Source: Escherichia coli
Lineage (GTDB): Bacteria; Pseudomonadota; Gammaproteobacteria; Enterobacterales; Enterobacteriaceae
Assembly (NCBI RefSeq): GCF_011045215.1
Contig: NZ_CP049201.1
DNA: 64,000 nucleotides
Strand: one strand, 5' to 3'
In this document: in pieces, positions 22,637 to 50,578 of the stretch
Layout of the letters: each line of letters opens with the position of its first letter
Numbering within the stretch: the stretch's first letter is position 1
Translations under genes and position numbers: made by a program
Notes under the pieces: generated by a model
What the model saw: the letters and a program-made list of their open reading frames with translations, nothing else
Told to the model about the DNA's origin: nothing
The model's database searches: none

Positions 22637-23443
22637 ATGATCGAAACGCTGCTTGAAGTGCGTAATTTAAGTAAAACGTTCCGCTACCGGACCGGTTGGT
22701 TTCGTCGTCAGACCGTAGAAGCGGTAAAACCCTTGAGCTTTACGCTACGTGAAGGCCAGACACTGGCGATTATTGGCGAGAATGGTTCGGGTAAATCCAC
22801 GCTGGCAAAAATGCTGGCGGGAATGATAGAACCTACCAGCGGCGAGTTATTGATTGACGATCATCCACTGCATTTTGGCGATTATTCCTTCCGCAGTCAG
22901 CGTATTCGCATGATTTTTCAGGATCCTTCGACCTCGTTGAATCCCCGTCAACGTATCTCGCAAATCCTGGATTTTCCACTGCGTCTGAACACCGACCTGG
23001 AACCGGAACAGCGTCGCAAACAGATTATTGAAACGATGCGTATGGTTGGGCTGCTACCGGATCACGTCAGTTACTATCCGCATATGTTGGCCCCCGGGCA
23101 AAAACAGCGTCTGGGTCTGGCGCGCGCGCTGATATTGCGCCCAAAAGTCATTATTGCCGATGAAGCCCTCGCTTCACTGGATATGTCGATGCGTTCGCAG
23201 TTGATTAATCTGATGCTGGAATTACAGGAAAAACAGGGCATTTCGTATATTTATGTTACCCAGCATATCGGAATGATGAAGCACATTAGCGACCAGGTGC
23301 TGGTGATGCATCAGGGCGAGGTTGTCGAGCGAGGCAGCACCGCGGATGTGCTTGCATCGCCGCTGCATGAACTCACCAAACGGCTGATTGCCGGGCACTT
23401 TGGCGAGGCATTGACAGCGGATGCGTGGCGTAAAGATCGTTAA
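22637..23443 (+). CDS. sapF: Sap ABC transporter ATPase
   Basis: 268-aa ORF with Walker A (GENGSGKS). Confidence 0.93.
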   Translation: MIETLLEVRNLSKTFRYRTGWFRRQTVEAVKPLSFTLREGQTLAIIGENGSGKSTLAKMLAGMIEPTSGELLIDDHPLHFGDYSFRSQRIRMIFQDPSTSLNPRQRISQILDFPLRLNTDLEPEQRRKQIIETMRMVGLLPDHVSYYPHMLAPGQKQRLGLARALILRPKVIIADEALASLDMSMRSQLINLMLELQEKQGISYIYVTQHIGMMKHISDQVLVMHQGEVVERGSTADVLASPLHELTKRLIAGHFGEALTADAWRKDR

Positions 23444-23469: not shown

Positions 23470-23514
23470 TCACCTCATTCTGACAAGAGATTAAATCTTG
23501 TCAGAATGAGGTGA
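23470..23514 (+). other. Perfect 19-bp inverted repeat (7-nt loop) spanning the ycjD ribosome-binding site and start codon
   Basis: TCACCTCATTCTGACAAGA-GATTAAA-TCTTGTCAGAATGAGGTGA; no U-tract on either side. Confidence 0.8.
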
Positions 23515-31700: not shown

Positions 31701-31968
31701 CCATTTCCCTTCTCTACGGATGATTTGCAGTTTGGCAAATCATCCGCTCTAAGATGATTCCTGGTTGATAATTAAGACTATTTACCTGTTATTAACACTC
31801 TCAAGATATAAAATTATTATCAGCGATATAACAGGAAGTCATTATCACCTGCGTGATATAACCCTGCGCGCGAGCGGATTTCACGGAATAATTTCACCAG
31901 GCTTATTCTTAGCTATTATAGTTATAGAGAGCTTACTTCCGTGAATCATAAATTCAGGAGAGAGTATT

Positions 31969-36747: not shown

Positions 36748-36784
36748 ATTTGCTTGCCGGAAGCAAAATAACCGGCAAGCAAAT
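36748..36784. terminator. 13-bp perfect palindrome between convergent ribA and acnA (probable bidirectional terminator)
   Basis: ATTTGCTTGCCGG-11 nt-CCGGCAAGCAAAT; no strong U-tract. Confidence 0.5.
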
Positions 36785-40136: not shown

Positions 40137-40465
40137 TGCTAACCTCATATAATCGCCATCACTTATCAGCAAGACGTTGAACGATTGGTGTAATTAATCA
40201 TACGATGAGACAAATCCTAAAGAAACTTTAGTCAAAAATCCAGCGAATTTACGAATCGTCTTCAGTGAATAATTCAATCTTTTGACCTGAAATAGATATT
40301 TGAAAACTGGAGTTTGCGAGGCGGGTAATTAGACACTACTTTACAGGTAATTTACCCTATAAATATGAGGGATAAAATATTGTGCACGATATACAAATAA
40401 GTAACAAAAGAAAATATATTTCGGCACCTTCGCTACAAAAAAGGTGCCGAAAATAACGCAAGAAA

Positions 40466-44878: not shown

Positions 44879-44913
44879 AGCAAAACGCGAGGTCTTACCC
44901 TCGCGTTTGTCTT

Positions 44914-47567: not shown

Positions 47568-48443
47568 TTAACCGTTATTATTACGTCCGCCAGAACGACG
47601 ACCGCCGCTCACCTGACTGTGACGTTTCACCGCACGACGAATCTGATTCGCCTTCATGCGACGACGGTCTTTTTCTACAGCGACTTTAGAGCTGGTTTCT
47701 GGCGGTAGCTCCACCAGTTCGCGCAGATAGTTAGTCTGGGCGAGGTCCAGCTCCGTCCAGCCACCGCGTGGCAGACCTTTTGGCAGTGGGATATCACCGT
47801 AACGAACACGGATCAGGCGGCTCACCTGCACACCAACCGCTTCCCACAGACGACGAACTTCACGGTTACGGCCTTCGGTCAGAGTCACGTTGTACCACTG
47901 GTTGATCCCTTCGCCGCCGCTGAACTTGATGGTTTTAAAAGCTGCCGGACCATCTTCCAACTGCACGCCACGACTCAAATCACGCAGTTTCGCGTCGTCA
48001 ACCTGACCAAATACACGCACGGCATATTCACGTTCAACTTCACGGCTTGGGTGCATTAAACGGTTTGCCAGTTCACCATCGGTGGTGAACAGCAGCAGAC
48101 CACAGGTATTAACGTCCAAGCGACCCACGGCAATCCAGCGTGCGCCACGTAGTTTTGGCAGACGGTCAAACACCGTTGGACGTCCTTCCGGATCGTTACG
48201 GGTACACAACTCACCTTCCGGTTTGTAATAGGCCAGAACGCGACAAATTTGTTCAGCGGACTCACGTACCGAAATCAGGTGACCATCGATACGGATTTTC
48301 AATCCAGGGGTAACTTCAACGCGATCGCCGAGTTTAGCAATTTTGCCATCAACACTCACACGACCGGCTTCAATAATAGATTCGATTTCACGGCGAGAAC
48401 CGTGGCCGGCACGCGCCAGCACTTTCTGTAGCTTTTCGCTCAT
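47568..48443 (-). CDS. rluB: 23S rRNA pseudouridine(2605) synthase
   Basis: 291-aa ORF with S4 domain and RsuA-type catalytic region; Arg/Gly-rich C-terminal tail. Confidence 0.93.
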
Positions 48444-48655
48444 AGAGCTTCCTTTTGGTGTCGCCTTCCCAGGCGTCTGATATGCTTTTGTGCAACAGTG
48501 AGTCAGAACTTACATCTGACTCACTGATAGTAAAGTCTGTTTGAACTCTTCAGGCCTTAAGTAAACGACTCGACGTTTTAACTGGCCTGGCTTTGAGGCG
48601 CAACATACTACACTATCTTTATGGTTAAAGCTTGTTTCGATTAACATCAGCTTAA

Positions 48656-50551
48656 TTACCAGCCACCACCGCCTCCGCCACCCGCGCCGCCGCCAGAACC
48701 ACCACCGGAATAGCTCCGCCCCAACAAACTGGTATAGGCCCCGCAACTCAGGTGCGTCTGTAATGAGAATAAAACGCCACTACGGGCAATTTCCGGGGCG
48801 CTAACAGCCGCTGTGAGTGATGGGGTGATACGTGCTGCCCATTCTCTTCCAAGATTTGCTGAGACTGCCCAACCTAGCAACGCGTAATCCAGTTTCCGTG
48901 TTTCCCCTTTCCGCCGCCGCCCACTGTGTGTTGCCGCCTCTTTACGCGCAAGATAGTTAACGATAGCTTCACCGTGGGCATAACGTTGCTGCCCAGTTTG
49001 GGTAAACTTTGGCAGAAAAATATACCCCATACCAGTGAGATAACCGGTCAGGAAAACAGCGCTAAAATAACCCGCTGACATATACCAGTAAAAGAATACA
49101 TCTCCGACATTGATATAGAGAGAATAAAAGGCCACGCCTGAACAAATCAGCGGTAAAAACAAAGTGATGATTACACGATTAACGCAAGGCTTGTCATCAT
49201 CGCGGGCAAACAAAAGCTCAAGGGAACAAAATAAAAAAGGAAGAAGCCAGCAGATCATAATAAACATATCGCCCACCAGACTCATTCCTGCCCAGCCTAC
49301 AGGACTCAGGTTACCGTAGAGAATGACCGCCAATATTGCCAGTCCACCCCATTGCAAAAACATATCAGGCCGGTAAAACGAAGACTTTTTACGCGGCAGA
49401 TAAAATTTCTGCATTCGTAAAAATGCCCTGCGTAACACTCTGTTTCGCCCACCGCTCAGAATAACCTTATCGCTTTTGCGAAATAACGCGTCCAGCAATA
49501 ACTGCTCTGCGGGCAGTAATTCAGCATTATTTCTGGTCGCGCCTTCATTAACACGAATTAGGGTTTGCTGGTTCTTGTCATACTGATCTTCCAGATGAAT
49601 TTTTCCTTTCACAATCAGATTTACGATATCAGCACAAAAACCTTTATCGTCATAAACCAGCTTCGCATCGAGACGTAACATGCCGGGCGTGTAATCGGGT
49701 GGAATGACATCAGTTTCCATCACTTCCACCGGCGTAAATTGCGGCCTGCGCTTCCAGAGATATAACCATCCACACGCCAGGAACAGGCACGGAAACCAAA
49801 TTAACAACGATGACGTAGAAGGTAAAAGAAGATGGCTGAAAATATTCGTCGTTTGTGGTACCGGGGCATTACCAAGTAAAGCGTGAGGCCAGCGGTAGAG
49901 TACCGTGAAATCTTCACGATAAAACGGATCGCGGGATTCAATTCTTCCGTCCTCAAGGATGCGGCCATTTCGATATGTGTCGCCCTCTTCTCCAGTAAAG
50001 AGATCGATTTCGCTAAATGGATTACCCGCGATATCAGGGAACTTGAGTGAAAATCGGGTCTTATAGATTTCAAACGGCCAGTGGTTACCAGTCACGTTCC
50101 AGATTAACAGATCTGAATCTCCCTCACGCTGGAAAGCATTTTTAACCTGATAATGAATTTGATAATGATAGTCGCCTTGAGGCAAGAAACGTTGTTTATC
50201 GCCCACGACAATACTCATTAACCCGATATGCCAGTCATGATGCCAGGGTTCAGGAATACCATCACGGGTGACGCCAACAATATGATAGTTCAGCAGTGCA
50301 GCGTCCCCATTAGGCTGCATCCATAGTCGTGGTAAATCACGATAAAATCCGTGCTTAATCTGCTGATTTCGCGCCTGAAAATGAATGTTCTCTTTGATGT
50401 CGAGCACCCCATCCGGTTGCAGAGTGGCTTCAACATCAAAGAGCGAGATCCCTTCTTCATAAGAAGGCATCTCCGTGTTTTTCGCATAACTTAACGAAGA
50501 GAAAAAAAGCCCAACTATCAATAGCAAAATGCAGCGAAACTTCCCTGCCAT
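48656..50551 (-). CDS. yciQ: DUF2207 membrane protein
   Basis: 631-aa ORF with signal peptide, multiple TM segments and a Gly-rich C-terminus. Confidence 0.88.
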   Translation of the reverse strand: MAGKFRCILLLIVGLFFSSLSYAKNTEMPSYEEGISLFDVEATLQPDGVLDIKENIHFQARNQQIKHGFYRDLPRLWMQPNGDAALLNYHIVGVTRDGIPEPWHHDWHIGLMSIVVGDKQRFLPQGDYHYQIHYQVKNAFQREGDSDLLIWNVTGNHWPFEIYKTRFSLKFPDIAGNPFSEIDLFTGEEGDTYRNGRILEDGRIESRDPFYREDFTVLYRWPHALLGNAPVPQTTNIFSHLLLPSTSSLLIWFPCLFLACGWLYLWKRRPQFTPVEVMETDVIPPDYTPGMLRLDAKLVYDDKGFCADIVNLIVKGKIHLEDQYDKNQQTLIRVNEGATRNNAELLPAEQLLLDALFRKSDKVILSGGRNRVLRRAFLRMQKFYLPRKKSSFYRPDMFLQWGGLAILAVILYGNLSPVGWAGMSLVGDMFIMICWLLPFLFCSLELLFARDDDKPCVNRVIITLFLPLICSGVAFYSLYINVGDVFFYWYMSAGYFSAVFLTGYLTGMGYIFLPKFTQTGQQRYAHGEAIVNYLARKEAATHSGRRRKGETRKLDYALLGWAVSANLGREWAARITPSLTAAVSAPEIARSGVLFSLQTHLSCGAYTSLLGRSYSGGGSGGGAGGGGGGGW

Positions 50552-50578
50552 AGTCTTCCATCCGTGGAACGCAATTTG

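Follow-up and report, generated by a model that had tools for sequence, protein, structure and literature searches.

Among described systems, the closest to the element reported here are leader attenuators (e.g. those of trp and pyrBI) and autogenous control by substrate mimicry, in which ribosomal protein S4 acts on the alpha-operon leader and the ErmC methyltransferase acts on its own mRNA. Further points of comparison are the 5' stabilising stem-loops of the ompA type, the REP/BIME repeats, the dyad operators of transcription factors, and RNase III sites, which comprise about two helical turns of duplex (around 20 bp). To our knowledge, the regulation of rRNA-modification enzymes is almost unstudied. 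The hairpin analysed here precedes the gene for one such enzyme, rluB, and is an uncatalogued, conserved, structured element of its 5' UTR, with a putative cis-regulatory role. Rfam 15 gave no relevant match to the window region at E <= 10 or to six other loci at E <= 1, with the Trp leader recovered as a positive control, and a full-text search of the literature found no description of the rluB leader.

The window is a 64,000-nt stretch of an Escherichia coli genome (contig NZ_CP049201.1), and the region studied is 100% identical to that of E. coli PapM-32-1 and 98% identical to that of K-12. Between the co-directional genes yciQ and rluB lies a perfect inverted repeat with arms CAGTGAGTCAGA (48496-48507) and TCTGACTCACTG (48515-48526) around ACTTACA (48508-48514). 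Reading of the sequence and an inverted-repeat scan agreed on its extent. The sense RNA is 5'-CAGUGAGUCAGA-UGUAAGU-UCUGACUCACUG-3', and 6 of the 12 bp of its stem are G-C pairs. The distance from the end of the hairpin to the A of the rluB ATG is 53 nt and that from the yciQ stop to its start is 129 nt. Neither strand has a U-tract or T-run after the hairpin, and a consensus scan of 48300-48800 gave no terminator-like sites. The original prediction had described 12-bp perfect arms with a 7-nt spacer about 55 nt before rluB and 130 nt past yciQ, lacking an adjacent U-tract, and the measurements bear it out on each of these points. The features of the locus are collected in Table 1.

Table 1. 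Features of the rluB leader and its surroundings in the window.
Feature	Position	Strand	Basis and remarks
rluB CDS, 23S rRNA pseudouridine-2605 synthase	47568..48443	-	ORF; RefSeq annotation of matching genomes
rluB Shine-Dalgarno sequence, AGGAAG	48448..48453	-	Sequence; unpaired or weakly paired in the leader fold
Full match to the covariance model	48458..48536	-	77.7 bits, E = 1e-12, model positions 1-82 of 82; single match in the 64-kb window
Box, GACGCC-U-GGGA-A-GGCGAC	48460..48477	-	5-bp helix, A.A mismatch and G-C pair, with GNRA tetraloop
Linker between hairpin and box, UUGCACAAAAGCAUAUCA	48478..48495	-	Alignment; holds the MazF ACA
Hairpin, 12-bp stem and 7-nt loop	48496..48526	-	Sequence, fold, covarying homologous helix, TSS position
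First leader hairpin, CCAGGCC...GGCCUG with inner stem	48552..48591	-	Leader fold; Escherichia-specific, shortened by deletion in L011
rluB transcription start site (TSS)	48597	-	From K-12 NC_000913.3 position 1326700 (PMC6131387)
-10 element TAGTAT, followed by G+C-rich discriminator GTTGCGC	48605..48610	-	TSS 48597 lies 7 nt downstream
yciQ, DUF2207 membrane protein, last gene of the yciV(rnm)-yciO-yciQ unit	48656..50551	-	ORF; annotation

The palindrome had also been called only mildly improbable by chance, which is fair at the scale of a genome. For perfect stems with 12 bp or more and loops of 3-10 nt, 0.023 are expected per 64-kb window by an analytic model and 0.017 from 60 dinucleotide shuffles, against 4 in the real window; about 1.7 are expected per 4.9-Mb genome. 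Repeat statistics alone decide nothing here, and chance is set aside because the palindrome is conserved. On the sense (minus) strand the hairpin folds with -20.1 kcal/mol (z = -5.1 against shuffles), and it is present in the minimum-energy fold of the entire rluB leader.

Three of the described classes were set against this hairpin, which is neither a 5'-terminal stabiliser nor a REP element nor a duplex of RNase III size. Like stem-loops of the ompA type it is a very stable 5'-UTR hairpin (-20 kcal/mol) that leaves the ribosome-binding site unoccluded, but its stem begins at +72 of the primary transcript rather than near the 5' end, and would become 5'-terminal solely after a putative upstream cleavage. 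As an imperfect-to-perfect intergenic palindrome between co-directional genes it recalls REP/BIME elements, from which it differs in being present in one copy per genome, in lacking the REP consensus and in having no Rfam match. Its duplex is short beside that of RNase III sites, with 12 bp in E. coli and 8-10 bp in most genera.

Published K-12 data place the hairpin within the rluB transcript. SMRT-Cappable-seq (PMC6131387) recorded a plus-strand transcript from 1326700 to 1327761 that fully covers b1269 (rluB) only, with 37 reads in M9 medium beginning at the TSS at 1326700 and 18 finishing at the terminator; in the tables b1269 has TSSs at 1326297 and 1326700. The terminator 3' end at 1327761 also appears in a Term-seq study (PMC7815308), and the transfer of K-12 coordinates to the window, which is good to about +/-1 nt, was anchored on it. 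The rluB leader is 154 nt long in the window and 152 nt in K-12, and, counted from the mapped TSS, the hairpin occupies about +72 to +102 of the 5' UTR. Full-length reads from TSS to terminator cross the hairpin site in K-12 (PMC6131387). The tables of the same study report no TSS between 1326700 and the rluB ATG, and among the ends listed in the Term-seq tables none falls at 13266xx-13268xx, a null result to be read with low expression in mind. The ROSE supplement has no entry for a TSS or 3' ends of rluB. The sole end mapped nearby is a reported MazF cut of the rluB mRNA at an ACA 49 nt before the AUG (Table 1 of the MazF regulon study, PMC5001579). This ACA lies 4 nt 3' of the stem, so rluB transcripts span the hairpin region.

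The hairpin is part of the rluB 5' UTR and not a 3' element of yciQ, because the TSS lies upstream of it and because a homologous stem precedes rluB in genera that have no yciQ. The original prediction had assigned the palindrome to both the 5' region of rluB and the 3' region of yciQ. The first assignment stands, with the K-12 TSS 152 nt before the AUG, and the second falls, the stem existing without yciQ.

Comparison across the Enterobacterales was made with 80 species loci fetched with RluB as the query, none of which has yciQ, and with additional loci reached through YciQ homologues. Escherichia, Klebsiella, Kosakonia, Leclercia, Enterobacter, Shimwellia, Erwinia and Yersinia all share the same stem, CAGUGAGU...ACUCAyUG, 13-18 nt before a GNRA-capped box and the Shine-Dalgarno sequence. 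In many of the 80 loci the arms are recognisably like those of E. coli (AUCAGUGAGUUA...UAACUC(G/A)UUG). The stem is only 8-10 bp long and A+U-rich in most genera, compared with 12 bp in E. coli, and the loop ranges from 3 to 18 nt. Twenty-three leaders were aligned with MAFFT, the seeds having been chosen because the hairpin was visible in them; related sequences inflate the cell counts of this alignment, in which 92% of the cells of a 10-pair helix are paired and double changes occur at 5 of the 10 pairs. The covariation score was reached by none of 500 column shuffles, and when the partners were slid by 1-3 columns as a control only 30-48% of cells paired. Unaided, RNAalifold returned the same helix together with that of the box.

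A covariance model of 82 positions, built from the 23-sequence alignment and covering hairpin, linker and GNRA box, scored at least 41 bits before rluB in 25 of the 80 species loci and was also matched in loci found via YciQ homologues. The matches include Klebsiella, a further locus (L100) and six others outside the training set. When the alignment was extended to 34 sequences, 11 of them non-training (Klebsiella, L100 and others), 91% of cells were paired and double changes were present at 7 of the 10 pairs, with a covariation score of 0.307 against 0.139+/-0.013 that 0 of 500 shuffles reached. By our own count, which uses pair statistics taken without a phylogeny, there are about six independent compensatory double changes. 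The constraint is placed on the sense-strand RNA because G.U is the commonest pair at one position (15/23); U.G and G.U recur elsewhere. Neither these pairs nor the varying loop suit a hairpin that acts on the other strand. The lower stem also keeps its identity beyond what pairing needs (C-G in 30/34, A-U in 31/34 and G-C in 31/34). Conservation across genomes, which the original prediction had proposed as a test, was therefore positive and accompanied by covariation. As judged from these substitution patterns, pairing of the stem has been selected on the sense RNA strand of the rluB leader.

The box is more widely distributed and more uniform. The pattern GACGCC-U-G(U/G)GA-A-GGCGAC stands before the Shine-Dalgarno sequence in all but one of the 80 loci, its stem is unchanged in every locus with the pattern, and all of its pairs are invariant in the 34 sequences. 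The tetraloop is GGGA in the window and GUGA in most genera, and the box helix is present both in the RNAalifold prediction and in the minimum-energy fold of the leader. The linker of E. coli is homologous to UUUUUGAAAGUAUACCA of other genera and is 13-18 nt long across them. Leaders of other types are present in about half of the loci, where the promoter is followed directly by a short G+C-rich hairpin or, being a TATAAT promoter, by a small hairpin only; the hairpin element is therefore replaceable.

The gene in front of the module changes from lineage to lineage. E. coli, Klebsiella and L100 have yciQ in this place, Yersinia, Pluralibacter and others have yciO with a spacer of 160-390 nt, and in Kosakonia, several Enterobacter, Erwinia mallotivora and Entomohabitans the gene is divergent. 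Between yciO and rluB, Klebsiella huaxiensis and relatives, Entomohabitans and one further assembly encode YciQ homologues (40-56% identity), and the rluB leaders of these loci are homologous to that of E. coli. A -10-like element with a G+C-rich discriminator is conserved before the module (TAGTAT, TATACT, TATAAT or TACCAT with GYGCGGCC), the discriminator in other genera being (A/G)(C/T)GCGGCC after TATACT, TATAAT or TACCAT. In K-12 this conserved -10-like element agrees in position with the mapped TSS. A third group of genera has a near-consensus GTTACA-17-TATAAT promoter, which the promoter scan calls in one locus (L060). The hairpin is classed as a leader element because the upstream gene differs by lineage and because a conserved promoter precedes the module. 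It is independent of yciQ, which is an accessory gene.

By analogy, the element appears to work most like the hairpin of a leader attenuator. It shares with attenuators a stem-loop between a mapped promoter and a start codon, a covarying stem and a drifting loop, and in 14 of the 23 aligned leaders there are 4-6 U in the 8 nt directly after the stem (UUUUUGAAAG). In Klebsiella the leader has an A-tract upstream of the stem too. Yersinia and Pluralibacter have at most 3 U after the stem and Escherichia has 1-2, the E. coli tail being UUGCACAA; loss of the U-run is confined to Escherichia in the alignment. Two defining traits of attenuators, the U-tract and a mapped premature 3' end, are nevertheless lacking in the E. 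coli leader, in which neither a leader peptide nor an alternative antiterminator was identified, and the stems of its relatives are mostly A+U-rich. The relatives are described here solely as followed by 4-6 U because a strict terminator scan left the leader hairpins of two of them (L096 and L027) uncalled. In non-exhaustive searches, no antiterminator alternative was found in the minimum-energy or centroid folds of the leader or in the RNAalifold prediction, and inspection of leader sequences gave no conserved leader ORF. A leader peptide was rejected, as the short ATG ORFs of some genera have stops in others and overlap the -10 element; an AUG-UAA in the E. coli loop was likewise discarded as a leader ORF, not being conserved in a divergent Escherichia (L011). 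Reading the E. coli hairpin as a terminator was rejected as well, there being no U-tract and no listed 3' ends, and reads pass through it.

On balance it is probable, if by no wide measure, that the palindrome is an RNA stem-loop of the rluB leader and the Escherichia form of an Enterobacterales module, which would be attenuator-like or pause-like in relatives and structural in E. coli. The proposed module runs from a promoter (-10 element and G+C-rich discriminator) through a variable spacer, the stem-loop, a linker of 13-18 nt and the GNRA hairpin to the Shine-Dalgarno sequence and rluB; within the stem-loop the lower stem (CAGUGAGU/ACUCAyUG) would be held and the loop free to vary. The element is expected to act in cis, after initiation. 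In its ancestral state the module may have been an attenuator or pause hairpin that limited read-through into rluB. In the yciQ-carrying Escherichia the U-run would then have decayed to UUGCACAA and the stem lengthened to 12 perfect pairs, termination most likely being lost. The present E. coli hairpin could be a structural module, fixing how the leader folds and holding the box hairpin and the Shine-Dalgarno sequence in a defined context, and possibly slowing decay or polymerase. Its output may concern the folding of the leader around the box and Shine-Dalgarno sequence, the decay of the mRNA, pausing of the polymerase or the binding of a protein. The module provides an easily mutable target for studying any coupling of rluB expression to growth rate, nucleotide pools or ribosome assembly. 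Even if the hairpin is plainly structural, the earlier attribution to yciQ is corrected.

One alternative, which we regard as rather unlikely, is that the stem-loop and the GNRA box form an RNA operator for a protein that sets the translation or stability of rluB mRNA, possibly RluB itself through its S4 domain. The lower-stem sequence kept beyond the need for pairing (30-31 of 34) would suit such a role, as would a box that is invariant from Yersinia to E. coli and has the dimensions of helix 93 of 23S rRNA, the substrate of RluB. RluB binds an isolated 21-mer stem-loop of helix 93 with its S4 domain on the loop, and specifically holds the bulged A2602 (PMC3919597). The sequence of helix 93 was checked in 23S genes, the rrl copy being 6 nt shorter than the 2904-nt numbering reference. 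The helix has a seven-pair stem, a GUGA loop and the bulged A2602, and the RluB target, U2605, is in the second pair from its base. The box agrees with it in stem length (7 stacked positions) and in the G-N-G-A loop, and has an A.A mismatch where A2589-U2605 pairs. However, the box has no bulged A2602, no bulge of any kind and no U at the target position, and its stem sequence is unlike that of helix 93. Moreover, the upstream hairpin has no evident rRNA counterpart, and GNRA hairpins are common.

Set beside the known cases of substrate mimicry, the locus is alike in that rluB encodes an S4-domain rRNA-binding enzyme and has an invariant box by the Shine-Dalgarno sequence that resembles the substrate in size and type of loop. 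It is unlike them in that the likeness is limited to dimensions, a G-N-G-A loop and the position of a mismatch, and that the bulged A is missing. A more specific version, in which hairpin and box form a two-part operator, is quite unlikely. In this version RluB, or another protein with an S4 domain or a part in ribosome assembly, would detect 23S rRNA that is unmodified or unassembled and adjust its own synthesis by feedback, with attenuation at the hairpin in genera where the U-run is kept. If the operator reading were true, this would be a case of substrate-mimicry autoregulation of a pseudouridine synthase.

It is doubtful that the hairpin is a functionless relic in E. coli, that is, an ancestral leader terminator left without its U-tract, whose stem would be perfect through recent history and not through selection. 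Of 5426 complete E. coli genomes, 3976 have a single copy of a 61-mer with the hairpin at its centre, and across the 5426 the number of hairpin places per genome has a median of 1 and a maximum of 2. Roughly 940 more genomes match the query solely in its rluB-proximal part. In the one such genome that was examined, yciQ is absent, yciO lies 100 bp before rluB, and the short yciO-rluB leader has a different G+C-rich hairpin after a TATACT -10 element. About 27% of E. coli genomes lack the hairpin and have a short yciO-rluB spacer with a different one, as a relic would allow, and loss of the U-run in Escherichia only points the same way. The strains provide a natural experiment, having either the long hairpin leader or the short yciO-adjacent leader with its own hairpin. 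The perfect stem inside E. coli says little, because the intergenic region is 98% identical overall, and to this extent the intraspecies perfection is compatible with a relic.

The variation that does exist speaks for maintenance of pairing. The hairpin 61-mer is the same as that of the window in 2634 of the 3976 genomes, and the dyad is perfect in 66% of yciQ-carrying E. coli. A single C->T change in the 3' arm is present in 1037 of the 3976 yciQ-carrying genomes. It gives G.U in the sense RNA and A.C on the opposite strand, and the commonest polymorphism of the E. coli hairpin is the one substitution class that keeps RNA pairing. Less common variants affect the loop or the pair that closes it. 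The divergent Escherichia (L011) differs from the window, across the final 96 nt of the leader, at 9 of 31 hairpin positions and at 2 of 65 flanking positions. Its five stem changes (A-U->G-C, U-A->G-C and A-U->G.U) keep 12 of 12 pairs. None of the 5426 complete E. coli genomes has this variant, whose hairpin region folds with -27.1 kcal/mol, within a range for Escherichia of -20 to -27 kcal/mol. Unless pairing has been selected within Escherichia, such paired changes between nearly static flanks are difficult to account for.

Improbable, and largely refuted, is the reading of the hairpin as a 3' element of the yciV-yciO-yciQ unit, either as a U-less terminator or as a hairpin that blocks 3' exonucleases after Rho-dependent termination. 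The hairpin is on the same strand as yciQ, 129 nt past its stop, and U-less stable hairpins mark the processed 3' ends of Rho-terminated transcripts, according to one published account (PMC6061677). Against this, the transcripts listed for the trpH promoter stop short of the yciQ end, and there is a Rho-dependent site within yciQ (Term-seq and SMRT-Cappable-seq data; PMC7815308, PMC6131387). No 3' end at 13266xx-13268xx is among the Term-seq ends listed, the rluB TSS is upstream of the hairpin, and homologous hairpins occur where the upstream gene is divergent or is other than yciQ.

The palindrome is very unlikely to be a DNA signal, whether a dyad operator of a transcription factor or a proximal promoter, TTTACT-16-TAAGTT, with its -10 element in the loop. 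The dyad is perfect in two thirds of yciQ-carrying E. coli and the sequence around it can be taken for a weak -35/-10-like pair. A DNA binding site is nevertheless disfavoured because the half-sites are between 3 and 18 nt apart, depending on the genus, and G.U dominates one position, with G.U and U.G pairs frequent. The C->T variant breaks the DNA dyad and leaves 26% of E. coli copies asymmetric, which, with the variable spacing, is unlike the dyad operators of transcription factors. There is no adjacent regulator gene, and the hairpin is single-copy, so there is no regulon for a DNA operator. The proximal promoter was rejected, being unsupported by the TSS data, with no TSS reported from 1326700 to the ATG, and by the promoter scan, which found nothing on the minus strand here. 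The original prediction had suggested a processing or stability hairpin or a binding site. The RNA hairpin is upheld by covariation and G.U pairing, with processing and stability as candidate roles, but the DNA binding site is disfavoured by the spacing and the same G.U pairs.

That the hairpin is a scar or terminal structure of a yciQ-bearing segment, such as the end of a mobile element or an attC-like site, is hardly credible: although the presence of yciQ varies among E. coli strains and homology with a yciQ-less strain resumes at 48477 (GACGCCTG), 18 nt from the hairpin, the reading is refuted by the lack of other genome copies and of a recombinase, by the hairpin in leaders of yciQ-less lineages, and by the occurrence at this site, in Klebsiella and Entomohabitans, of divergent homologues of yciQ (40-56% identity).

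The rluB leader carries a box upstream of the gene whose sequence is unchanging and which lies 17-34 nt before the rluB AUG at each locus possessing it. The box folds as a GNRA-capped hairpin in which an A.A mismatch takes the place of the second pair, and it equals helix 93 of the 23S rRNA, the substrate of RluB, in both size and loop type. By this analogy, the box may be an autoregulatory operator.

The first hairpin of the leader, located between the transcription start site and the palindrome, is restricted to Escherichia. It differs by a 2-nt indel between the window strain and K-12, and is shortened by a deletion in the divergent Escherichia genome L011. The loop of the palindrome (48508-48514) reads AUG-UAA on the sense strand, forming a start-stop pair, but the pair is probably coincidental as it is not kept in L011. 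In several genera the MFE fold contains an extra outer helix, in which the conserved GUAUAC/AAUAUAU linker pairs with the stretch immediately 5' of the hairpin. This helix surrounds the stem-loop in the Yersinia and Klebsiella folds; no such helix was predicted around the stem-loop of the E. coli leader.

In E. coli, yciQ is a presence/absence polymorphism, and the yciQ-rluB leader is carried by 3976 of 5426 complete genomes. Outside E. coli, the yciO-rluB interval holds cargo that varies between genera, including yciQ homologues (40-56% identical), an acetyltransferase and a divergent gene of 555 aa. The interval looks like a site of repeated gene gain and loss. Published BCM/Term-seq data place a Rho-dependent termination site within yciQ (K-12 1325258, window ~49.5-50.1 kb), and the SMRT-Cappable-seq listing gives transcripts from the trpH promoter as b1266|b1267 only; yciQ therefore seems to be poorly transcribed within its annotated operon. 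A second rluB transcription start site (K-12 1326297) falls within the yciQ coding region. The C-terminal tail of YciQ is glycine-rich and differs in length and sequence across E. coli strains, and most of the differences in alignment A1 come from this tail.

The window holds four perfect inverted repeats whose arms reach 12 bp or more and whose loops span 3-10 nt, compared to 0.017 per shuffled window. The repeat with 19-bp arms is much stronger than the rluB-leader palindrome with its 12-bp arms, and sits in the gap left by two ORFs, one of them ending at 23443 and the other starting at 23511. The repeat at the sohB/yciN junction resembles, with one loop base different, the sequence reported for the Term-seq 3' ends at K-12 1330384 and 1330415.

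Features of the rluB leader and its surroundings, and other perfect inverted repeats in the window
Feature	Window position	Strand	Location or counterpart
Box GACGCC-U-G(U/G)GA-A-GGCGAC, 18 nt	48460-48477	minus	also in comparison rluB loci L002, L010-L101
First leader hairpin, CCAGGCC...GGCCUG plus inner stem	48552-48591		between TSS and palindrome
Outer helix			~5-70 nt upstream of box; Yersinia L073/L077/L082/L083, Klebsiella L090/L092/L094
yciQ presence/absence region	48478-50573		L002 1590-1668
yciQ 3' end, glycine-rich tail GGGSGGGAGGGGGGGW	48656-48720		
TCACCTCATTCTGACAAGA-GATTAAA-TCTTGTCAGAATGAGGTGA, 19-bp arms, 7-nt loop	23470-23514		
12-bp arms	31717-31746		
13-bp arms, no loop	32282-32307		
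13-bp arms	36748-36784		
12-bp arms	40419-40452		
10-bp arms	44883-44908		sohB/yciN convergent junction
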